Source: a virus
Taxonomy: Duplodnaviria > Caudoviricetes
Strand: one strand, 5' to 3'
Virus record (IMG/VR): IMGVR_UViG_3300017589_000011
Span: 1 to 31,916 of that record
DNA length: 31,916 nucleotides
Made by a program: the position numbers and the translations under genes. Below, piece by piece: positions 1-31,446 of this stretch. Position 1 is the first letter of the stretch; each line of letters begins with the position of its first letter. Below the pieces are notes generated by a model, which saw only the letters and a program-made list of their open reading frames with translations, was not told where the DNA came from and searched no databases.

Positions 1-114
1 ACATACTGTGGCATGCCGAAGCGGTATCTGTGCCGGGGTGGGCAAAAACGAAATTCCATGGGTTCATATTACCACAAGAAAATTATGGGATCAATAGATT
101 TTGGCAACTGTAAC

Positions 115-148
115 ATGAATGCAACAATTGGAACAATGTTGTATTCAT
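115..148. repeat. Imperfect inverted repeat
   Basis: ATGAATGCAACAATTG-gaa-CAATGTTGTATTCAT, just downstream of the recombinase-HU gene. Confidence 0.55.
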
Positions 149-185: not shown

Positions 186-1352
186 TTATATATCAGCATT
201 AAAATTCATCGCAAACAAAAGTTTTGGATATGGTATGAAAACCGGTGAGCATTCCTCTGGCACTTTTATAAATTCCAGTGTGAAAATGTTGTGTTTATAG
301 TGCTCATGAGTTGTTTTAATGTAGAACACCCCAAACCCGTCAATGCCAATGGGTTCTCCTTTTCTCAATTCGTCCGCAATCACCTTCCACATTGCGTAAT
401 AAACCATATCTGCTGTTTGTTGGTTTAGTCCTTTTCGTCTGCGCGCAGCCCAATATGCACTACTACCCTGATATAAAGCGTTAACCCCTTCGGCACTATT
501 TTCTGCCTGCTCCAGAAAATACCCAAAAGTTGAAAGAAGACTGATTGCCGAAACCCCCAAACCTTCTACCAAGAATGGCAAGTCCTTTGTTTTTATGGTT
601 TGTAGCTTTTTCAGTATATAGTTATTGCGAAGACCATTTAAATTGATAGTTTCATCCTCAATCCCACGCTTTTCTTTTGCTGCTCTAATAAGCAAAGCTA
701 TACTTGGACCTGCAAAACGGGTTTTCTTTTGGGAAGTAAAGATATATTTGTTAGCTGGTCCAGGTTTTTCTTTAATAAAACACGATAACATTTCTCGCAA
801 AGGTTCTTCAAGCCAAATACGACGTTGCTCATTGATGTAGATTAAATTGTTTTCAAAGTCAATATCTTTCAGCTTCAATGATAGAAGTTCTTCTCGAGTT
901 AAACCAGCAAACCATGCAAGGCCCATCGCAATACCTGCAAAGGTCTCCTTCTCTATTGATATAAAGCCATCTATTTCTTCAAGTGTTTCTGCGCTATATG
1001 GGCACCCATGCATCCCACTCTTCGTCTTTTGATTTATTCGAAAAGATACCTCTGCTTTGGGTAGATTTTCTCCCAAACCTTTCTCTTTGGCAAAATCAAA
1101 TATTTCTTGTAGAATTGGTTTTCCGTAGGCGACCTCACTTCGATCAAGTCTTTTTCTATACCTCTGTTCGAACATAACTTGCACAAAATAAGCATCTACC
1201 CTCTTTGCTGTAAGCATCGAAATTTCTTCATCTCCAAGGAAAGGCAGAATATATAATTCAAGAAAACTATTATAGTATGGTTTTAAATATGGAAGGATGG
1301 TTTTTTGTTTTTCTTCCCACCACTCAAGCGCTACCTCTCTCACTGTTGGCAT
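186..1352 (-). CDS. Tyrosine-recombinase-fold protein with degenerate active site, fused to a C-terminal HU/IHF-like domain
   Basis: Core-binding signature (YILPFLGDEEISMLT); box I GLTREELLSL; box II LNGLRNNY...LGVSAISLLSTFGY; C-terminus ELRKGEPIGIDGFGVF...PVFIPYPKL aligns with HU. ATG 1352 follows a GGGGGTGA RBS (track start 1364). Confidence 0.8.
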   Translation of the reverse strand: MPTVREVALEWWEEKQKTILPYLKPYYNSFLELYILPFLGDEEISMLTAKRVDAYFVQVMFEQRYRKRLDRSEVAYGKPILQEIFDFAKEKGLGENLPKAEVSFRINQKTKSGMHGCPYSAETLEEIDGFISIEKETFAGIAMGLAWFAGLTREELLSLKLKDIDFENNLIYINEQRRIWLEEPLREMLSCFIKEKPGPANKYIFTSQKKTRFAGPSIALLIRAAKEKRGIEDETINLNGLRNNYILKKLQTIKTKDLPFLVEGLGVSAISLLSTFGYFLEQAENSAEGVNALYQGSSAYWAARRRKGLNQQTADMVYYAMWKVIADELRKGEPIGIDGFGVFYIKTTHEHYKHNIFTLEFIKVPEECSPVFIPYPKLLFAMNFNADI

Positions 1353-1387
1353 TCCCAATCTCACCCCCTGCGGACATTGTTTTCCTC

Positions 1388-1416
1388 ATAATACCATGAT
1401 TTATATCTACATTCAA
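1388..1416 (-). promoter_or_regulatory. Sigma-A-type promoter of the recombinase-HU gene
   Basis: TTGAAT-17 nt-TATTAT with TG extended -10. Confidence 0.75.
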
Positions 1417-1433: not shown

Positions 1434-1471
1434 AAAAAAAGAGGACTCCCCACCATGGAGAGCCCTCTTTT
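1434..1471 (-). terminator. Rho-independent terminator after holin
   Basis: GAGGGCTCTCCA-TGG-TGGGGAGTCCTC stem followed by a T run on the minus strand. Confidence 0.85.
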
Positions 1472-1492: not shown

Positions 1493-1927
1493 CTATTCCT
1501 TCTCGCCCTTATCCCTTAGCGCTTCCAGGGCCTTCTTCATCGCTGGAGGATACGGCACACCCATCAAGCCAAGATTCTCTATCAGGGATATTCCTTCATT
1601 GCCGATGTAAAATAGCACCATGGCAGTTCGGATGTACGTTGCGCCGGTGGCAGCATCCAAGAGCGTTCCGATCCAGACCGCCAACAGGATCACACCCTTT
1701 TTGCAAATGCCCCTGAAGCCCGCTTTACTGCTCAGTGCGCCTGTCTCGCTCTTGTTGGAGTTCTGCCAAAAGATCGCCACCATCAGCCCGGTTATGTAGT
1801 CCACTGCCATCATGCCGACCAACAGTATCAAAGCAGCGTCCCACCCTCCGAGCTGATTGGCAGCCATCGAGCCAACTGCACCCGCGCTTGACAGGATCCC
1901 ATATCTGTTTTCGATTACATTTTTCAT
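1493..1927 (-). CDS. Holin (toxin secretion/phage lysis holin family)
   Basis: GGWD...DYITG...SSKAGFRGICKK...FYIGNEGISLIENLG motif; TM segments; GGAGG RBS before ATG 1927. Confidence 0.92.
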   Translation of the reverse strand: MKNVIENRYGILSSAGAVGSMAANQLGGWDAALILLVGMMAVDYITGLMVAIFWQNSNKSETGALSSKAGFRGICKKGVILLAVWIGTLLDAATGATYIRTAMVLFYIGNEGISLIENLGLMGVPYPPAMKKALEALRDKGEKE

Positions 1928-1928
1928 A

Positions 1929-2576
1929 TTAGCCTCCATACAGGCCAGCCCGGTCATTGATGACTAGCAGCCTTAATTCACTGTAAGTCAGGTTTAGCTC
2001 TGACCCATCACCCTTAAGAGCCCCACATTTGGTAAGCTTGTCCACCGTGGCCTTGCCCCACTCTGGGATCTCTTTCATCTCATCATACTCAACCTTCTGA
2101 GAGGCCAAGGTCTCTTGTACAATAGCTTTTACCTGTTCAGGTGTCATATCAACTTCCTCCTTATGTAGTGGCATGTTGGGGGGATACTTACCAGCCCTAA
2201 TGTCAGAGCCAGTATATCCCCCATGGTTGTCCCACTGGAAATGTGGACAGTCCACTAGCTTCTTCCAGTCTCCCCCCCATGAGAAGCCCATCATCTTTCC
2301 AATGACAGATATACCAATCCAGAATTCACGGTCAGAATATTCATGGCCTTTAACATTCTTGCAAACATCAAAAGCCAGACCAGACTTGACATTGTGGAAG
2401 GTGGAGGGTGGCTTGCTGCCATGTCCGGTTTTGAAACACTGAAGCTGAAACTCATCATCTCTCACGGTACCTGTGAGGAGGACGGGGTAACCCGCCCTCT
2501 TGCACAGATCCAGGAAGACTCTACAGTTATCAGCAACATCAGGCCTAAGTAGATTGATGTCCTTACTGTTTAACAT
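1929..2576 (-). CDS. Endolysin, M15 L-Ala-D-Glu peptidase with SLH-like C-terminus
   Basis: TFHN...GLAFD...WGGDW...DCPHFQ Zn-peptidase motifs; C-terminal IPEWGKATVDKL...GALKGDG; AAAGGAG RBS before ATG 2576. Confidence 0.88.
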   Translation of the reverse strand: MLNSKDINLLRPDVADNCRVFLDLCKRAGYPVLLTGTVRDDEFQLQCFKTGHGSKPPSTFHNVKSGLAFDVCKNVKGHEYSDREFWIGISVIGKMMGFSWGGDWKKLVDCPHFQWDNHGGYTGSDIRAGKYPPNMPLHKEEVDMTPEQVKAIVQETLASQKVEYDEMKEIPEWGKATVDKLTKCGALKGDGSELNLTYSELRLLVINDRAGLYGG

Positions 2577-2612
2577 TTGGTCTCTCCTTTCAGGCATAAA
2601 GATACCGCCCTA

Positions 2613-12756: not shown

Positions 12757-14451
12757 TTATGCCTTGGGTACAGCGATAACCTTGCCAGACTTAATAACTT
12801 TGCTGTTTCCGTCCAACTCGACCACAGTAATCATCTTGCCAGCGGTGGCAGTGATCTGGGTAGTACCGGAAGTCAACGCGGTGTATCCAGTTACGGTCTG
12901 GCCAGTGGTCACGGTCAGGTCGCCGATCTTATACTTAAGCGTGGTGCCAGAGGATTCAGCGCCAGTAACTGTCAGAACGGTATCGCCGGATGCAGTGCCA
13001 GCCGCGGCGGTCACGCCAAGAACGCCCAACTCTGTGTTGGCATAGTCCTCGGGGAAGGTGCTGGTGGTGACAGCATCGGTGTTGTCGAAGGAAACGGCCA
13101 CAAAAGCCTCGCCGAATACGGGCATGCCGTCGTAGCGAGCATAGCCGCGGAATCCGGTCAGCATTTCCTTGAACTTAGCGTGCTCAGAGCTGTCAACCTT
13201 TGCCCCTGCACGCTCTGCCAACATGTACACAGAGCCGTAGCCACCGACAATCTCGTTGTCACCAACCATCTCCAGCTCCTCGATGTTTCCGCCAATAATA
13301 GGCATCTGGTTGTTTACGCCCGCAACGAGAGCAGCGGCAGCGTCGAAGGCCAACGCCTTTGTCATCAGCTTGATGTGCGTCTTGCGATTCATCGCCCAGA
13401 ACGCCTGGCCGTTTGAATAGTTTGGCTTGGCCACGCCTAAAGCGGCAATCAGCGAGGCGTAGAAAGCTGCCCCGGTGCTTCCGTCAATGTTCAGCTTCAA
13501 CACGTTGCTGGAGTGCAAGTCAGTCCATGCGGGTGCATAAGTGCCCCAAGTAGACGGCGCAGAGGTCTGTGCCAGTCTGGTCATGATTCCAACAGGCGTT
13601 TTGGTTCCAGGGCCATACAGGATGCCGCGATCAACGCCTTTGCCGATAGCCTGGCCAAGCTGTGTCATAACCTCAGCTCCAAGAGCCATGTCGCTGTCTT
13701 CGAGCAAAGTGTTTGGCACCCAGATGATTCCGCCGACCATGTACCCATCAACCTCAATCTGATTAAACGCCATGTCCAGCTCGTTGAGTGCGCCAGCGGC
13801 CTCCATCCAGACACCCTCAGGCACTGCGCCGATGATGTTCTGGCGTGCGGTGCCGCCCACCTTCTTGACATTTACGTACTTGACAAGTTTGGAATACTGC
13901 TCCATGTTGTCACGCAGAACTTCCATCATAATGTCAGGGATGGTCAGGCCGCCGTTGGTAACGCCGCGAGTCTTGATGGAGCGGACCTCGTTGATAAAGC
14001 CCTTCACTTCATCGCGGGCAAAAAAGGTGCTGCGCTCCTCCTTGTTCATACCGAAAAACTTCACTCTGGTTTCCATTGTATTGATTCCCTTCCTTTCGTC
14101 TTTGCGGGCCTCTGCGGGAGGCGTGGCCCCTTTCTTGTTGATTTGGTCCAGTTCGTCGGACAGTTTCTGAATCTCTGCTTCTAGGGCAGTCTTTGCTCCG
14201 TCGTTCTCTGTCTGCTCGCCACTAAGCGCTTCTGTGTCTGCGTCGAACGCCGCCACAGCTTCATCCACAACAGCCTTTTCCTCGTCTGTGGTGTCTGCTG
14301 TGACTTCGTTTACCGCAACTTCCAGCTCTGCCTCGCGGGTTTTCAACTCCGCCTTGCGGGTTTCAAAATCAGCATCCTTGGTCCGAAGAGCTTCCAACTT
14401 GCTCCTGATGCCTTCGATCTGCTTGGTAAGTACCAATTGTTTTAGTGCCAC
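12757..14451 (-). CDS. HK97-fold major capsid protein with N-terminal coiled-coil delta domain and C-terminal Ig-like domain
   Basis: GGLTIP, VWMEA, AIGKGVDRGILYGPG, GYARYDG motifs; GTG start overlapping the protease end. Confidence 0.93.
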   Translation of the reverse strand: MALKQLVLTKQIEGIRSKLEALRTKDADFETRKAELKTREAELEVAVNEVTADTTDEEKAVVDEAVAAFDADTEALSGEQTENDGAKTALEAEIQKLSDELDQINKKGATPPAEARKDERKGINTMETRVKFFGMNKEERSTFFARDEVKGFINEVRSIKTRGVTNGGLTIPDIMMEVLRDNMEQYSKLVKYVNVKKVGGTARQNIIGAVPEGVWMEAAGALNELDMAFNQIEVDGYMVGGIIWVPNTLLEDSDMALGAEVMTQLGQAIGKGVDRGILYGPGTKTPVGIMTRLAQTSAPSTWGTYAPAWTDLHSSNVLKLNIDGSTGAAFYASLIAALGVAKPNYSNGQAFWAMNRKTHIKLMTKALAFDAAAALVAGVNNQMPIIGGNIEELEMVGDNEIVGGYGSVYMLAERAGAKVDSSEHAKFKEMLTGFRGYARYDGMPVFGEAFVAVSFDNTDAVTTSTFPEDYANTELGVLGVTAAAGTASGDTVLTVTGAESSGTTLKYKIGDLTVTTGQTVTGYTALTSGTTQITATAGKMITVVELDGNSKVIKSGKVIAVPKA

Positions 14452-15020
14452 TTTGCTAACCTCTCTTTCGTTCTTAATTTCCACTCCTGCGTCTTGCGTT
14501 CTTGGATCAGCTTAAAATCCTTTTTTCTCGCGGATACCGAGGTGTCCTCGTATGCGGGGAAGGTGACGACAGAAACCTCATATAACTTGACCTTTTTGAT
14601 TGTCCAGTGGACGGTACCATCGTCGTTGTACTGCGTCTCCTCATCCAGGATTTCAAATCCAAAGGAACACTGGTTTACATCTCCGCGCTGCACTCTTGCA
14701 TACAGATTCATCGCGTCTTGGTCTGCCTCGTTTATTTCGATGCGACCCCATAGTCCACGACTGTCAACCTTCAGTTCGAGCGTACCGGCTTTGTTGCGTC
14801 CAAGGACAAGTCTTGTCTCGTGGTCAATCAGTGCCCGCACATCGTCAGTCAGTGCACCGTCAAAAGCCGCCGGATCTACACTTTCTGTCGCCCCTGGCCA
14901 AAGTTCGTACATGCCGCCGAACACCGAAAAATAACCTTCGATATACTTTTTGCCGTCTGTCTCAGCCGCCCTAAACTCTGTTGCCTGACTTCGCATCTGC
15001 CTGTTCGTTCGATCACTCAC
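14442..15020 (-). CDS. HK97-family prohead protease
   Basis: IEGYFSVF, ALIDH, GDVNQCSFGF, LYEVSVVTFPAY motifs. Confidence 0.93.
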   Translation of the reverse strand: MSDRTNRQMRSQATEFRAAETDGKKYIEGYFSVFGGMYELWPGATESVDPAAFDGALTDDVRALIDHETRLVLGRNKAGTLELKVDSRGLWGRIEINEADQDAMNLYARVQRGDVNQCSFGFEILDEETQYNDDGTVHWTIKKVKLYEVSVVTFPAYEDTSVSARKKDFKLIQERKTQEWKLRTKERLAKWH

Positions 15021-21140: not shown

Positions 21141-21896
21141 CTATTCTCGTTTCGGTGTGAATATTTCGAAATACTCTTGGTATGGGTATCCGCTGACCTC
21201 ATGCCACCCGCTGCGGGCAGTCTTGCCATCGTCGAACTTATAAAGCACAGCACCCTTGTGTGGCTTCGGCTCATCTCTCCACGTTGATGCCTGAACATTT
21301 TCATAGCGCAGGACAGGTGCATCTAAATTCTGGCTGCTGCTGTACCGCTTTCCACTCCGCCCAGCTTCTTTGTACCGTTCCATTGTTGCCTTGGCTTCCT
21401 TGATCAAATAGGCGGCCAGTTTGGCATGGTTCCCACGCTTGTCCATGAGCCTGAAGCTGATTCCTCCAGTCCCCTCGATTCCCTCCCATGCTTCTGCAAT
21501 GATTTCCGCGTCCATCCGGTTAATCACGACATGGTGATGAATATTTGTCATTCTCTTAGTTTCCGTCACTGCTATGTATTTCAGAGTGATCCCTTTTGCC
21601 TTGCATATCCTGCGAAGGCGTTTTAAGAATAAGGCCAGATCATCCCGGCATTGGTCCAAGCTCCGTTCCTTGTCGAAGTAATGGAGGACAGCATGTAGAT
21701 CCAGATAACCAAAATTGGTATTCAGCTTCCATCTGAGTTTTTCCTCTGCGATCCGCTCGTTTACCTTTTCCTGTGCTAACGTTGTGTTCCCCATATTCTT
21801 GGATCGTTCTATCCCCTTAGTGTGAATCCTGGAGGAATGCATTTTTCTATGTTCGACAACTTGTCCAGCTATAACCGTCCTATGAACGTAAGGCAT
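21141..21896 (-). CDS. HUH-superfamily rolling-circle replication initiator
   Basis: Motif I-like HAVLHY, HUH motif IHHHVVIN, catalytic LAAYLIKE, RYSSSQNL; GGAGG RBS before MPYVHR. Confidence 0.8.
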   Translation of the reverse strand: MPYVHRTVIAGQVVEHRKMHSSRIHTKGIERSKNMGNTTLAQEKVNERIAEEKLRWKLNTNFGYLDLHAVLHYFDKERSLDQCRDDLALFLKRLRRICKAKGITLKYIAVTETKRMTNIHHHVVINRMDAEIIAEAWEGIEGTGGISFRLMDKRGNHAKLAAYLIKEAKATMERYKEAGRSGKRYSSSQNLDAPVLRYENVQASTWRDEPKPHKGAVLYKFDDGKTARSGWHEVSGYPYQEYFEIFTPKRE

Positions 21897-21983
21897 TGCT
21901 CCCCCTCCTATAGACTTGCTGGTCACTTTGCTAATAGCTCTTACCGGTGCTTTACAGAGCCATTGCTCCGTTCATTTTTCGGC

Positions 21984-22166: not shown

Positions 22167-22194
22167 CAGATGCCCATCCTGTCAAGGGGAGCTC
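22167..22194. repeat. Left arm of 28-bp inverted repeat
   Basis: CAGATGCCCATCCTGTCAAGGGGAGCTC; 27/28 match to reverse complement of 22476-22503. Confidence 0.92.
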
Positions 22195-22475: not shown

Positions 22476-22503
22476 GAGCTCCCCTTGACAGGATTGGCAT
22501 CTG
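22476..22503. repeat. Right arm of 28-bp inverted repeat
   Basis: GAGCTCCCCTTGACAGGATTGGCATCTG. Confidence 0.92.
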
Positions 22504-23108: not shown

Positions 23109-23392
23109 TTTTTCACCCCAAAAACTTCTGCCCCACTGATGGCGGTTAAGCTACATTTCCAAACATCGCAAGCGCAGAGTAGCGCTGATAGGTTTGACCC
23201 ATGCGGCACAGTGACCTCTCCATACTTCGGATGTACCACGCGGACGCGGTTGGGAGCTTTCCACCTGTGCTTCTTGCTCCGCACGGCTGCTTCACATCGT
23301 CTGTCCACTTGACTTTTCAAACTCTCTTCATCATGTTTAAAGGATCGATGCCCAGTATTTCGCACGTTCCAAGACTTGCTGGCTGTACTCAC
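23102..23392 (-). CDS. Hypothetical early phage protein
   Basis: AAAGGAG RBS before GTG; tiles the operon. Confidence 0.65.
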   Translation of the reverse strand: MSTASKSWNVRNTGHRSFKHDEESLKSQVDRRCEAAVRSKKHRWKAPNRVRVVHPKYGEVTVPHGSNLSALLCACDVWKCSLTAISGAEVFGVKKC

Positions 23393-24131
23393 TTTGGCTC
23401 ACTCCTTTCTCCCATAGCTTGGAGGCTCCAGTGGGTCCCATGTTGTATGCCATGAGAGCCTTTCCCATATCATCGAACTTCTCTAGGTTTTCAGCCAGAT
23501 AGTCACAGGCCACACGGAAATTACCAGAAGAATCCCACAGGTCGGTTACACCCAAGCGATCCATGCGGTCGCGGTGCAGGTGTTCGCGTACCTGCATATA
23601 GCCGATTGCGGACCCACCGTCACCTGCTACGTTCCGGAAGTTGCTTTCCCGCTCGATCATTGCTAAGCCAATGGCGTATGGAATATCAAATTCCCGGCAG
23701 GCAGACCACAGCTTGTCCTGTTCTTCATAAGTAAGAGGGCTTTTGCCTTTTAAATAAGTTAAGTTCGCGATCAGTGGGCCATGTTCCTCAGCTGCGTTCC
23801 CAATCGTAATAGCTTGTGGCGCTGCGCTTGTAGATTCTGCCGCTTTGCAATTGATAATGCCCCAACCAGCCAAGCCGATCAGTAAGGCAGCCACTAAAGC
23901 AATGGAAACTTTCTGCATCCTGCGGGTACGCAATCTGCGTTCTGCGCGGCTGATGCGCATCTCATGCTTGTACCACTGGGCCGACATATCGGTTTCGGCC
24001 ACATGCCCTCGCATCATTCGCATGTCCCGATCCATAAACTCCACCTTATTCATAAGGTAGTCCACATCTCTGGCTATTCCGTCGTACTGTGTCAGCGTCC
24101 GGCGCAGGTACTTTTCCTTTCTCTGGCTCAC
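23337..24131 (-). CDS. Membrane-anchored lytic transglycosylase (SLT domain)
   Basis: AMIERESNF, AIGYMQV, ALMAYNMG SLT motifs after one TM helix. Confidence 0.88.
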   Translation of the reverse strand: MSQRKEKYLRRTLTQYDGIARDVDYLMNKVEFMDRDMRMMRGHVAETDMSAQWYKHEMRISRAERRLRTRRMQKVSIALVAALLIGLAGWGIINCKAAESTSAAPQAITIGNAAEEHGPLIANLTYLKGKSPLTYEEQDKLWSACREFDIPYAIGLAMIERESNFRNVAGDGGSAIGYMQVREHLHRDRMDRLGVTDLWDSSGNFRVACDYLAENLEKFDDMGKALMAYNMGPTGASKLWEKGVSQSEYSQQVLERAKYWASIL

Positions 24132-24425: not shown

Positions 24426-25487
24426 TTAGCCATTCGTAATCTTCAAAAACTGGTCTGCCATAGCAACAGAGGCCTTCCTTAAGTTTCCCGCTACACCGCT
24501 TTCCTTTTCCTCCATGCGCTGTAAGGTTTGCATCATCTTAGAAAAGCTCTCCTGCACCTGCTCGAACAAAAGCTTAAACTTCTGCGCATCCGGATCCGCC
24601 AGGGCAACTTGCTTTTCAAGGTCGTGTAAACGCTGAATGTTGTCCGCAGACTCCGATTGGCCTTCCGCCTTGGCTAGCTCCAATGCTTGCTCATGCTCAA
24701 CTTTCTGCGCTTCCAGCTGCTGTTTCAGCGTCTCAACCTCTGCCTTGGCTTTTTCCTCTTTTTCCTTTGCCTTCCGCAGTTTTTCCTTTGCGGAGGTTTC
24801 CGCCTTGGCGACAGCTTCATCCACGGCTTTCTGATCCACGACAGTCGCCACATCAACCTCAATAGGCGTCTCCCGTAGCGCGGTCAATTCCTGCTCCAGT
24901 AATTTTCGTGCCTCTTCGGCCGTCTCGGCATCTGCATTGAGCTGTTCTAGCCGACTGTTGGCCTCCTGCATTTCTTCCGCCATTTTGGAACGTGCAGATT
25001 CTGCAATTTGCCGATCTTGCTCTTTCCGCTCGGCCTCTGCCTTTGCTTCATCGCGCTCGCGGATGAGTCGATCCAATTCACGAGAGGAAAGGTCCTCCAC
25101 CTTGTTGGTCTCGGCGAATTCCTCACGCTCATCCTCAGGGATTGCGAGCAGCGCCAAAGCCTTTGTATACGGCAAATTCCCAAGCGTTTGCGAATTTGAT
25201 TCGCCTCCAAACAAGCTGATTTGAAGTGCCCCGTATTCCTCAAAAATACGCATGAAGTTGTTGGCTGTGGACTGAGAAAATTCCACCTCTGCTTTTAACC
25301 ATCCACCCCACGACCCATGGGGAAGTTGTTCCTTTGCCTCACGGAGGCGACGCCCAATCTCAATGGCGTAGCCCAGCACCACTTGCTGTGCCTGCCTGTG
25401 CAATGTCTTGATCTCCAGGGTAATAACATGAATATCACGACTCTCGGCCGGATTGACCCCTGCCAAAGCTGTCTCATTTTCACTCAT
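24426..25487 (-). CDS. DUF3102-domain coiled-coil protein
   Basis: IEIGRRLREAKEQLPHGSWGGWL...STANNFMRIFEEYG. Confidence 0.85.
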   Translation of the reverse strand: MSENETALAGVNPAESRDIHVITLEIKTLHRQAQQVVLGYAIEIGRRLREAKEQLPHGSWGGWLKAEVEFSQSTANNFMRIFEEYGALQISLFGGESNSQTLGNLPYTKALALLAIPEDEREEFAETNKVEDLSSRELDRLIRERDEAKAEAERKEQDRQIAESARSKMAEEMQEANSRLEQLNADAETAEEARKLLEQELTALRETPIEVDVATVVDQKAVDEAVAKAETSAKEKLRKAKEKEEKAKAEVETLKQQLEAQKVEHEQALELAKAEGQSESADNIQRLHDLEKQVALADPDAQKFKLLFEQVQESFSKMMQTLQRMEEKESGVAGNLRKASVAMADQFLKITNG

Positions 25488-27220
25488 GCCGTCTGAACCT
25501 CCTTCTTAACTTCCGCAGCGGGAATCATTGGGTTTTTATTTTTGTCCCGCTTACTACCTTCCTGGACCCATCTCAGCCACGGTCCCATGAAAAAGCCGTA
25601 AACCTCCAAGGGATTCTGTGCTATACGTTTTCCGTTCTCTCGTTCGTTCTTAAACCCGTGTATTTGCACCAGCCCTTTTCCGTCCATTTCTATGGTACAG
25701 AGTGGTTTCTCTGGATCGTCCACACGACGTAGGAATAGAATTGTCAAAGTCCCATTCATGTGACGCTCGGCGTATCCGGCCACACAATGTTGCAATGCTT
25801 GTCCCTCGGCTATGATCTCTTCCCCGTCTTTTGGTACCCGAATGAACAGCCCATTGGAGATCATGGAATATTTCTTTTGGAGCTTTTCTCGGCGCTGTTT
25901 ATAGGTCATTTGCTTCAGTTCCAGCTCCGCTCGAAGTGTTGCGTCTCGCTCCGCTTCCTGCCGATCCTTCTCTGCCTTCAGGCGCCTACGGTGCTCTGCC
26001 GTTGCTATGTCATGCGATTCCTGCAGGTCTCTAGGCATGGCCACTCTCTCCTGCGTTACGTCATACCCGATAGCTTTTGCAGCATCCATGTAATCTGACC
26101 AGTGGCGCAGGATATCATGGATTGACCGATAGCCGCCTGCATGGCAGCCCCCTGTGTATTGATCTAAGTAGGTAATGACCTTTTGTGGACGAAGGCCGGC
26201 AAGCAAGCATCGCTGCACCAGCGTTCCCACCACACCAAAATCAAGCTGTCGGTACAGCTTTTCCATTTCAGTAATGCTTTGCCGAATCCCATGCTTTCGT
26301 AGCTTCTTTACCAAGTGCAACACATTCGGCACCTTGCTCCCGGATAAAAACTCTTTGATTTCCGCTTTTGTAAGACCAAAGGCCTTAACCGGATTTTCCT
26401 GCTCCCAACAGAAGACATAAGCATTTTTCCTCCTGTAGTAAAGGAACTCTTCAACAAACTTCTGTGCTCCAGCCTTCATGAGCATTTCCACCTGCTTTGG
26501 ATAGACACAATACAGGGTCATATACTTGATGAAATCGCTGTGCTTGCTGCTGTAGTGATATGTCCCCCAGCGGCTATACTGGCAGTACCGAAGGCTGCTT
26601 TCCTTCAGCTTATCCATGCCTATAACAAAGTACGATTCATGGCCTGACATCATACAGCCCCGTTGGAATGGCTCACAGATCTTCATCCTAGAAATACGGG
26701 CTTGCTCCGTTTGGCAATACCAATTACTATATGACCGACTGAACATACGAGCCTTACCAAGCTGAAACTGGTATAGCGTGTCCAGAGAATACCCTGCGTC
26801 TCCATCAAGCCTGTGCTCGTAATCTTTCCTGACCCAGTAAGCCTGGGCAAAGAGCGAATCACCCTCTGCATTCACAAAGACAACGTGGTGTTGATCGCTC
26901 AAACTTCTCCTTTTCCCGCTCTTACCTATGTTCTTCAGAGTAGCTGCTTTCCCACAATACGGGCACTCCACCGAATCGTTGTGACTGGAACACATGAAGT
27001 TATGATGGTTGGAATCCGAAAGCATTCTGAAGCCTTCATACCGCGCCTCATGCTTGTGACAACAACTCGTGTCTATGATGCGGTCACCGTTCTTTTCGGT
27101 GCGATAGAATATGTAATGCTGGAACAGGTCATTGGCTTGATCCAAGTCCTCTTGACTTAGCTCGGGGAAATTCTTCACAACGTCCGTTTCCTCTTTGGTC
27201 AGGTGTTGATACTCACTCAT
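25484..27220 (-). CDS. PcfJ-domain protein
   Basis: DYMD...PRDLQESHD...EGQALQHCVAGY...ILFLR...TIE...QIHGFKN; start MSEYQH after GAGGTGG. Confidence 0.88.
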   Translation of the reverse strand: MSEYQHLTKEETDVVKNFPELSQEDLDQANDLFQHYIFYRTEKNGDRIIDTSCCHKHEARYEGFRMLSDSNHHNFMCSSHNDSVECPYCGKAATLKNIGKSGKRRSLSDQHHVVFVNAEGDSLFAQAYWVRKDYEHRLDGDAGYSLDTLYQFQLGKARMFSRSYSNWYCQTEQARISRMKICEPFQRGCMMSGHESYFVIGMDKLKESSLRYCQYSRWGTYHYSSKHSDFIKYMTLYCVYPKQVEMLMKAGAQKFVEEFLYYRRKNAYVFCWEQENPVKAFGLTKAEIKEFLSGSKVPNVLHLVKKLRKHGIRQSITEMEKLYRQLDFGVVGTLVQRCLLAGLRPQKVITYLDQYTGGCHAGGYRSIHDILRHWSDYMDAAKAIGYDVTQERVAMPRDLQESHDIATAEHRRRLKAEKDRQEAERDATLRAELELKQMTYKQRREKLQKKYSMISNGLFIRVPKDGEEIIAEGQALQHCVAGYAERHMNGTLTILFLRRVDDPEKPLCTIEMDGKGLVQIHGFKNERENGKRIAQNPLEVYGFFMGPWLRWVQEGSKRDKNKNPMIPAAEVKKEVQTA

Positions 27221-27230
27221 GGGAGCCACC

Positions 27231-27605
27231 TCACAGGAAGGAGGACAGGTCCAACAAAATGCTGCTGGCCTTTTTTGGTACCGGTGCGGCTTCTTCGGGC
27301 ACCTGATCCGCTTGCCCGACAAGATCAATGGACATACTCAACCGGATCCCTGCACCGGGGAAATAGAACTGCACCGCCTTGCGATAAATCTCAACATCTG
27401 GCGTGTGATTCTGTACCCCATATACGGCGACAGCAAGACAATTATCAAAGGATCCACCCTGCACTACAGCCTGGGCAAATTCAGCATCCTGCCGGCAGAA
27501 ATCGCAGAGCACATCACACAGCGGCTTCTTGACCACATTTCCGAATTTATCTGATCGAGCAGCCTTATATTCCTGCTCCAGTTTTGCAACTGCTTTCTGT
27601 TGCAT
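27231..27605 (-). CDS. PcfK-like protein
   Basis: FAQAV...SFDNC...DVEIYRKAVQFYF pattern; adjacent to PcfJ. Confidence 0.65.
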   Translation of the reverse strand: MQQKAVAKLEQEYKAARSDKFGNVVKKPLCDVLCDFCRQDAEFAQAVVQGGSFDNCLAVAVYGVQNHTPDVEIYRKAVQFYFPGAGIRLSMSIDLVGQADQVPEEAAPVPKKASSILLDLSSFL

Positions 27606-30202: not shown

Positions 30203-31294
30203 GTGACTTGTGTTAAATGCAAAAAGGAAATACCGGACGGCAGCTTGTTCTGCAGTTTCTGTGGAAAAAAGCAAACAGCAGAACAAAGAAAGACACTCAA
30301 GCGCCCAAACGGAGCCGGGACGGTATACAAGCTGTCTGGTCGACGTAGAAAGCCGTGGGTTGCTGCGAAGAACAAAGCCATACTTGGATACTACGAAACA
30401 AAAACAGCGGCCTTAGAATCTTTGGAGGCGTTTGCAAAGCGAGATATCACAGAACTGTTCAACATGACGCTATGCGGTATCTATGTAGAGTGGTCAAAGG
30501 AACACCTTGGCGGGCTTTCGTCGCATGGTAAAGAAAGTTACGAGAATAGTTGGAAACACTTGTCTACGCTCGGAGATAGAAAAATGCGCTCACTCAGGAC
30601 GGATGACTACCAAGCTGTCATCAACTCCATGATTGAGGCAAATAAAAAGAGAGCGACAACCGTTAAGGTTCGCTCTCTAATGACTCAGCTTAATAAATGG
30701 GCTATGCGCGAGGATATTGTGGAGAAAGATTTTTCTTCGTTCGTTCGACTGCCTAAAGACGATAGCGAAGAAAAGAAAATATTCACACAAAAACAAATTG
30801 ATAAGCTATTTGAAAAGGCTACGGATCCATGCGTGAGGGTTATATTGATTCTTATATACTCAGGTCTTCGTATCGGTGAATTGATGGCAATAACAAAAGA
30901 GAATGTCCACTTAGACGAAGACTATATGATCGGTGGCATAAAATCTGAAGCAGGGAAAAATCGTATAGTTCCCATCAATCCAAAGATAAAAATGTTTATA
31001 TCGGAATTATATCATAATGCTCCAAGCGGCGGTAAATTGATGCATGGATACGACGGCAATCGTAGCCCCGCAAATTTCCGCAAACGAGAATTTGTTCCAA
31101 CATTAGAAAGTCTAGGAATGTTTGGCTTTACTCCCCACTCGACAAGGCATACATGCGCGAGCTTAATGGTGGCTGCTGGGATACCAAGGGAACTAATTCA
31201 GAAGATTCTAGGACATGCTCAATATTCTACAACGGCTGACTATTACGTCCATAAGAACGCGGAAGAACTCGTGGCCGCGATAAAGAGCATCTGA
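30203..31294 (+). CDS. int: Prophage tyrosine integrase with N-terminal zinc ribbon
   Basis: CVKC...CSFCG; RPNGAGTVYK arm-binding segment; intact SGLRIGE, IKS, PHSTRH, LGH...YY. Confidence 0.95.
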   Translation: MTCVKCKKEIPDGSLFCSFCGKKQTAEQRKTLKRPNGAGTVYKLSGRRRKPWVAAKNKAILGYYETKTAALESLEAFAKRDITELFNMTLCGIYVEWSKEHLGGLSSHGKESYENSWKHLSTLGDRKMRSLRTDDYQAVINSMIEANKKRATTVKVRSLMTQLNKWAMREDIVEKDFSSFVRLPKDDSEEKKIFTQKQIDKLFEKATDPCVRVILILIYSGLRIGELMAITKENVHLDEDYMIGGIKSEAGKNRIVPINPKIKMFISELYHNAPSGGKLMHGYDGNRSPANFRKREFVPTLESLGMFGFTPHSTRHTCASLMVAAGIPRELIQKILGHAQYSTTADYYVHKNAEELVAAIKSI

Positions 31295-31330
31295 CATTAC
31301 AGTCTGGTTACTAACAAATTATAAATAGGC

Positions 31331-31370
31331 AAAAAATAAACCCTGTAACCGTTGAGGCTACAGGGTTTAT

Positions 31371-31371
<1 letters not shown>
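31331..31371 (-). terminator. Terminator downstream of tRNA-Thr (possibly bidirectional)
   Basis: AATAAACCCTGTAACC-gttga-GGCTACAGGGTTTATT with T run on the minus strand. Confidence 0.8.

Positions 31372-31446
<75 letters not shown>

Follow-up and report, generated by a model that had tools for sequence, protein, structure and literature searches.

The analysed window, a viral stretch of 31,916 nucleotides, carries near one end a gene for a protein that has the fold of the tyrosine-recombinase superfamily without its cutting residues and that ends in an HU/IHF domain (Table 1). We propose, at about even odds of being right, that this protein acts as a DNA clamp and transcription regulator for an accessory S-layer cassette and likely helps to choose between S-layer genes. 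Judged by sequence comparison, it belongs to a separate lineage, set apart by a different pattern of catalytic losses, by the recombinase–HU architecture and by a recurring link to S-layer genes in the Oscillospiraceae, an abundant family of anaerobes. This S-layer link is the main clue to the function and was overlooked when an earlier, sequence-only reading considered the context of the gene; furthermore, a literature search, mostly outside subscription journals and at title and abstract level, found neither the architecture nor the link reported.

Table 1. Features of the gene, its surroundings and the visible prophage junction (window coordinates).
Feature	Position	Strand	Basis
S-layer leader hairpin, 5' part, palindromic GGCATGCC loop, cut by the contig end	1..38	-	Leader alignment; genus leaders nearly identical
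Downstream promoter-like site of the putative S-layer gene, TTGATC-17-TAATAT with TG	66..94	-	Aligned with S-layer promoters; under scan threshold
TGTTGC-N5-TGTTACA direct-repeat box before the downstream promoter; also before S-layer genes without a dead recombinase	109..126	-	Alignment of leader loci
CDS, dead tyrosine recombinase (core-binding + catalytic fold) fused to HU/IHF domain, 388 aa	186..1352	-	ORF, Pfam, homologues, model
HU/IHF-fold domain, residues 298-383; arm tip N-I-F-T replaces N-P-x-T; neutral to acidic	204..461	-	Pfam, VIA, Foldseek, pI
Catalytic-fold domain, residues 112-288	489..1019	-	Alignment; VIA match XerA 5hxy
Phe276 codon at the nucleophilic Tyr position	525..527	-	Phe in 14/14 close-family sequences
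Core-binding (SAM-like) domain, residues about 1-105	1038..1352	-	Weak Pfam Phage_int_M/SAM_3; VIA match 3lys
Own sigma-70-type promoter-like site, TTGAAT-17-TATTAT with TG (extended -10)	1388..1416	-	Promoter scan
Terminator of the lysis cassette (stem-loop, T run), immediately ahead of the gene's promoter	about 1434-1468	-	By eye; absent from scan list
Prophage endolysin (M15 peptidase) and holin, directly upstream of the gene	1493..2597	-	Pfam
Prophage integrase (30203-31294, +), arm-like GGTTACTAACA at 31306, inverted repeat, tRNA-Thr(ggt) 31371-31446(-)	30203..31446	.	Pfam, tRNA, repeats

Counted from GTG, the open reading frame (186..1364, minus strand) encodes 392 aa; the start at ATG 1352 gives 388 aa and agrees with the database call and with the Met-Pro start of 13 of the 14 close-family proteins, and residues are numbered here by this 388-aa form. 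An HMM scan, which the sequence-only reading had suggested as a check, placed both domains past their Pfam cut-offs (Phage_integrase, 35.6 bits against 27.1; Bac_DNA_binding, 43.5 bits against 22.4), while matches to core-binding domains (Phage_int_M/SAM_3) were weak and under the cut-off and the protein lay far under every NCBIfam cut-off. The fusion described in that reading is real, as homologues share it and the structure model agrees, and the three motifs it quoted occur in the sequence as written. The AT-richness it remarked on is borne out by a GC of 0.383, the lowest among 27 open reading frames measured. The extended -10 promoter named there corresponds to a promoter-like site at 1416..1388(-), but the scan of the window, with six sites against 3.9 ± 2.4 in shuffles, is weak taken alone; a comparable arrangement was recognized by eye ahead of the orthologue in [Clostridium] viride. 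The lysis terminator that it placed ahead of the gene is likewise visible by eye but missing from the list of the scan; the distance from it to the promoter of the gene is only about 15 bp. Two DNA sequencing runs with a small share of this sequence gave three short contigs inside the gene at 93–99% identity, none of which reached its ends; among RNA runs, none was listed as containing it.

The loss of catalytic residues was evaluated in a close family of 14 sequences, namely the window protein and 13 relatives, 43–64% identical, from homologue searches. In a structure model built from 31 sequences (pLDDT 81.5, pTM 0.68), which superseded an earlier 8-sequence model (pLDDT 53), the core-binding domain matched the integrase N-terminal domain 3lys (VIA Z 11.1, rmsd 2.1 over 96 residues) and the catalytic-fold domain matched XerA 5hxy (VIA Z 16.2, rmsd 3.1 over 168 residues); the model also matched SroF (Z 12.3) and MrpR (Z 11.8). 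The nucleophilic tyrosine is replaced by Phe276 in all 14 sequences, His-II by Asn239 (N, T or K across the 14) and the His/Trp residue by Val267 (V, A, I or M across the 14). Furthermore, the loop between β2 and β3 that bears the catalytic lysine carries a five-residue deletion relative to XerA in the window protein, a further loss that had escaped the earlier description; the replacing loop is five residues long in the close family and contains a lysine in one of the 14 members. Arg242 of the H-x-x-R motif and Glu155 are invariant in the 14 sequences, and the first catalytic arginine of G-L-R-x-x-E is invariant in the family as Arg153, one position later than canonical. The proposal of a dead recombinase was thus supported, with the tyrosine, the lysine loop and both histidines lost and these losses fixed over the close family. 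The idea that a tyrosine two residues after Phe276 might serve as a displaced nucleophile, was rejected because Tyr278 occurs in only one of the 14 sequences. As the same catalytic losses are found in all 14 sequences, the family represents an enzyme that is dead but conserved, not one in decay. Its open reading frames are intact at 43–64% identity, and where the window and C. viride share a residue with a degenerate codon, the codon is a different one in 78 of 128 cases, consistent with long purifying selection.

The topology of the C-terminal domain is complete in the model (helix-helix-strand-arm-strand-helix), and its match to HU 3rhi (VIA Z 8.0, rmsd 2.7 over 86 residues), a Foldseek TMt of 0.69 and the Pfam score uphold its assignment to the HU fold. 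The domain is complete in six of the 14 close-family sequences, is cut within in one and is preceded by the end of the protein in seven, and it also occurs on the fragment P0033 and on the 25%-identical protein P0025; the fusion is therefore conserved and neither a one-off nor an assembly artefact, and the domain is at the same time dispensable in the family, eight of the 14 sequences being without all or most of it. The domain is 21–30% identical to seven host HUs. The change of the basic arm and of its intercalating proline, noticed earlier in the window protein, extends to the other fused domains, with the arm proline missing from 8/8 of them and present in 7/7 host HUs, the R-N-P arm missing, and a pI of 4.6–8.0 (eight sequences) compared with 9.2–10.1 (seven host HUs). 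The loss of basic charge weakens the idea of built-in DNA bending, so that of the earlier suggestion of a repurposed clamp with a bending domain the regulator remains the most plausible part and the bending the weakened one. We infer that the HU domain serves dimerisation more than general DNA binding.

At E up to 0.001, a profile search returned 1267 proteins; the list was headed by degenerate catalytic-fold proteins in several architectures, including tandem catalytic-fold domains with winged helices (hereafter the tandem form). The canonical G-x-R-x-x-E is kept in 23 of 281 family domains, and in a tree of 51 domains, from which the fragment P0033 was excluded and whose root is not established, a branch with 99/98 support separates the family from 10 canonical integrases. 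What ties the tandem forms to the close family are the profile matches and this one tree. More dead-recombinase architectures were seen among P0023, P0024, P0030, P0036, P0065, P0069 and P0107, namely proteins with three catalytic-fold domains in tandem and winged helices, proteins in which the core-binding domain is doubled, and one of 1006 aa with numerous HTH repeats. Of 401 family genomes, 12 have the tandem form, with 13 places in all; members of the close family turned up in 1/401 family, 1/40 genus and 1/401 order genomes, the same genome each time. Searches for close relatives gave no confirmed locus in metagenome contigs, only distant integrases in viral contigs and no close relative in 50,697 phage records; phage and plasmid records held only partial matches, 22–33% identical. 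PADLOC returned 0 families at E up to 0.01 for P0003, P0018 and P0025.

The contig ends 185 bp downstream of the gene, inside a promoter and RNA leader typical of Oscillospiraceae S-layer genes, and these last 185 bp resemble the intergenic region between the C. viride orthologue and its SLH gene. A leader profile from 16 other loci matched the window at 129..1 with E 1.2e-10 (next match, 0.21), for a training set chosen with a pattern partly taken from the window hairpin; the upstream box, the -35 and the -10 align too. The leader hairpin of Oscillospiraceae S-layer genes (window 1-38(-), L010:11060-11140, L020, L022, L024, L025, L027, L056-L065 and L078-L102) has a self-complementary loop, GGCTAGCC or GGCATGCC, and comprises 13 pairs with 91% of cells paired and 6 pairs changed on both sides, a covariation score reached by 0 of 500 shuffles. 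The leader usually occurs as one copy per genome, and Rfam at gathering thresholds contained no family for it. At all leader loci a TTAC-N5-TTACA direct repeat lies about 15–20 bp upstream of the -35; this box, which we take to resemble an OmpR/WalR-type box, is probably the site of a host regulator. It was considered as the operator of the dead recombinase and rejected, since it occurs without that gene: in 24 of 25 genus genomes the box stands before S-layer genes with no dead recombinase adjacent. A comparison of five promoter regions revealed no operator, only shared words of 8–10 bases.

The orthologue of C. viride DSM 6836, which is HU-less, is the sole close relative found in a genome and hence the sole one whose context could be read. 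It lies about 0.9 kb after tRNA-Thr(cgt), directly before the gene for a 1050-aa SLH protein and a resolvase-domain gene. Among 401 order genomes, the tRNA cluster of the window has its best matches in C. viride (83%) and two other members of that genus, so the host is probably a close relative of C. viride. Within this genus, 25 of 40 genomes have one exact-pattern leader, some of them one base off that of the window, and the leaders precede an S-layer-type open reading frame wherever readable. Given the S-layer-type promoter and leader downstream of the dead recombinase, as in the C. viride arrangement, the gene beyond the contig end is presumably an S-layer gene. The tandem form has a similar neighbourhood: at the 11 resolved of its 13 places, which are not independent although their upstream genes differ, the next gene was an S-layer gene at seven (six by Pfam SLH, one by its N-terminus) and another gene at four, while SLH genes make up roughly 0.5–1.5% of genes in five tandem-form genomes. 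Three near-identical viral contigs carry the tandem form, and two of them run on into the leader, the third stopping at the stop codon. As relatives mostly lie directly before S-layer genes, the dead recombinase likely controls the choice of surface coat.

Viral contigs gave 12 pattern matches for the leader, of which four were dropped as lying inside a phage coding region; the order lysis, recombinase, S-layer was shown by no viral leader match. In six viral contigs (L056, L058, L060, L061, L062 and L065), a terminase/portal/head-type cluster, with gene names judged from the sequences only, stands head-to-head with the S-layer promoter, and this may be a domesticated prophage or a gene-transfer-agent-like cluster. 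By eye, the region that follows one tandem dead recombinase (L026:1-450(-)) shows two tandem copies of a promoter plus a small divergent unit, reminiscent of type I toxin-antitoxin repeats.

The copy numbers of S-layer genes were then compared among genomes. In this genus the usual neighbour ahead of the S-layer gene is gapA, and a dead recombinase precedes the leader only in C. viride (1/25); there, the gapA-linked S-layer gene is kept with intact box, promoter and leader, and the recombinase-linked gene is a second copy, 65% identical to it. Among genomes in which a covariance model of the leader gave a match, two leader loci were present in 4 of the 11 that bear the recombinase and in 0 of the 31 that do not (Fisher P=0.003), a value that overstates the case because the genomes are related and incomplete and 7 of 14 training leaders are recombinase-linked. 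Two genomes (G099 and G264) have variant recombinase-linked leaders missed by the covariance model, plus a standard leader elsewhere; in G011 the promoter of a second S-layer gene gives a weak match, G310 has only one full-length S-layer gene of this type, and G266, one of the four with two leaders, has a recombinase that is not beside an S-layer gene. Several S-layer-type genes without a recombinase are common, with at least two matches in 14 of 39 genus genomes, some of them to shorter proteins. Five genomes (G405, G416, G419, G427 and G430) show 5–13 S-layer-type matches but a single leader, which suggests a single expression site and silent copies, a pattern known from antigenic variation.

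The remainder of the window is temperate phage DNA, with capsid, portal, terminase, a Cro/CI-type HTH regulator and an intact integrase, and the region 30203..31446 forms its one visible junction. In relatives of this integrase, 39–48% identical, the gene is followed by an arm-like motif, an inverted repeat and the 3' half of a tRNA, and the right junction of the window has the same form. In three of three prophage-free relatives, tRNA-Thr(ggt) is followed by other genes; in one of them (L076 of G041) a duplicated tRNA-Thr 3' end, an integration scar, lies about 170 bp after the tRNA, indicating that tRNA-Thr(ggt) is an insertion site. A second copy of the tRNA end or of the arm motif was found neither near the dead recombinase nor elsewhere in the window; this, the 15-bp gap and the different genes of the three relatives speak for a gene that lies within the prophage or within stacked mobile DNA. 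Counting against this, no phage record has a close relative, no viral leader match has the gene order given above, and the C. viride copy lies in no visible prophage, so that we regard a location inside the prophage as about as probable as one outside it. The gene is arranged like a prophage moron, following the lysis genes and having a promoter and a distinct GC of its own; a search for relatives of the window endolysin found none. The 9-mer GGCAAAAAA, at 1431 and 31328, was dismissed as an att core because each copy is the T run of a terminator, and the integrases related to this one rely on tRNA 3' halves. The nearness of a tRNA-Thr in both readable cases was likewise dismissed as conserved synteny proving a host locus, as the anticodons differ (ggt and cgt) and the three relatives have other genes there. 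Elsewhere in the prophage, the major capsid protein (12757-14484(-)) carries an SbsC-like (Ig-like) S-layer domain at its C-terminus. The early region has genes for a REP_ORF2-G2P-domain protein (21141-21926(-)), a domain more typical of rolling-circle elements, a lytic transglycosylase (SLT; 23337-24131(-)) and a PcfJ-like protein (25484-27328(-)), and it contains a 28-nt inverted repeat (96% complementary; 22167-22194 and 22476-22503) that encloses 281 bp and is possibly a small non-autonomous insertion element.

In the mechanism that we propose, the core-binding and catalytic domains would encircle a specific operator, as SroF of phi3T does, and the HU domain would mainly dimerise two clamps and thereby bridge or loop two sites, with Ile and Phe at the arm tip perhaps replacing the intercalating proline; relatives would use tandem catalytic-fold domains and winged helices in place of the HU domain. 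The target would be the transcription of S-layer genes, in the simplest case by repression of the resident gene in favour of the cassette copy, as FljA and FlkB do for flagellin, with an S-layer gene past the contig end and the window cassette at its moron-like position behind the prophage lysis terminator. If this holds, the gene would be a candidate regulator of S-layer choice in a poorly studied family, accompanied by a conserved leader RNA, a question testable in cultured C. viride DSM 6836, which holds both the resident and the cassette S-layer genes. A bolder version, which we consider doubtful, is that the temperate phage carries an S-layer conversion cassette consisting of a second S-layer gene and a recombinase–HU repressor that silences the resident one; lysogeny would then swap the surface coat, and hence phage receptors and the immune-visible surface, and a regulator family in several architectures would run S-layer switching across the Oscillospiraceae.

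Other explanations were weighed against the same data. The protein could be a non-catalytic scaffold or directionality factor that binds and bends sites at the S-layer locus while an active recombinase in trans swaps, inverts or excises S-layer genes. Cassette switching predicts the many genus genomes with several S-layer-type genes and one leader (13 matches and 1 leader in G405), in G099 the gene immediately upstream is an intact tyrosine recombinase, in C. viride the gene after the S-layer gene has a resolvase domain, and HU/IHF serve in intasomes; we nevertheless hold this to be unlikely, since the multi-copy genomes lack the close dead recombinase (1/40 in the genus has it), an active partner within about 1.5 kb upstream was seen at only 1 of 13 tandem loci, and the winged-helix fusions point to transcription control. 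It is rather unlikely that the protein serves the phage in a way unrelated to the S-layer, be it as an SroF-like prophage repressor, as an exclusion or defence protein, or as an acidic HU-like subunit poisoning host HU by heterodimerising. The place right behind the lysis terminator, the own promoter and low GC and the pI of the HU domain (4.6–8.0, against 9.2–10.1 in host HUs) would suit such a role, as would the precedent of SroF and MrpR, which are prophage repressors, but the absence of close relatives from viral contigs and from the 50,697 phage records, the chromosomal neighbours of the C. viride orthologue, the Cro/CI-type HTH gene that the prophage already has, and the eight of 14 close sequences without most or all of the HU domain speak against it. 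Two roles envisaged by the sequence-only reading find no support here, defence as PADLOC gave no match for the protein, and action against rival integrases as BLASTP detects no likeness between the protein and the integrase of the window (E 0.31).

That the gene is the functionless leftover integrase of an element which once delivered an S-layer gene appears quite improbable: its patchy occurrence, in 1/401 family, 1/40 genus and 1/401 order genomes and always in the same one, and a tRNA-Thr nearby in both readable cases would agree with a relic, whereas the same substitutions fixed in 14/14 sequences at 43–64% identity with intact reading frames, the diverged synonymous sites and the newly added DNA-binding domains would not. 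A still-active recombinase or topoisomerase with shifted or borrowed residues is very improbable. Arg153 (shifted by one), Glu155 and Arg242 are invariant and the distant relatives P0025 and P0026 keep a tyrosine near the nucleophile position, but Phe276 is found in 14/14 sequences, Tyr278 in 1/14, and the lysine loop is deleted; moreover, exchange of Tyr for Phe abolishes the activity of Cre, XerH and lambda Int, and MrpR with 3 of 7 catalytic residues kept gave no recombination (PMC10516654).

Dead tyrosine recombinases that act as regulators are already known from repressors of SPbeta-like phages. The master repressors MrpR (YopR) and SroF (PDB 8a0a and 9rd5) share the core-binding and catalytic fold and have lost most catalytic residues; they are DNA-encircling regulators, SroF being a monomer that encircles its operator (bioRxiv 2025.11.27.690993), and this precedent of integrase-fold repressors underlies our reading of the window protein as an integrase-fold regulator. 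The losses differ, since MrpR keeps the tyrosine and lysine and loses arginine and histidine residues whereas the window family keeps the arginines and loses the tyrosine, lysine and histidines, and SroF is without the HU domain to which the window protein is fused. Structural identity to MrpR and SroF is only 14–15%, a phmmer search of the PDB with E up to 1 gave 13 matches that included neither of them, and the neighbourhood is one of S-layer genes, not a lysogeny switch, which together point to a regulator of the integrase-fold type outside the MrpR/SroF family. Active phage integrases and Xer proteins, such as XerA 5hxy, the best structural match, and the window's own integrase, have the same fold and domain order, but the window protein is without their nucleophile, lysine, histidine residues and arm-binding domain. 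With HU/IHF (PF00216) the C-terminal domain shares the complete topology and differs by its fusion behind a recombinase fold and by having neither the R-N-P arm nor the basic charge. The fljBA and flkAB flagellin cassettes of Salmonella and E. coli H3/H47, in which an islet couples an accessory flagellin gene to a regulator while the resident gene stays at another place (PMC3378880), offer a functional analogy only, with no homology implied.
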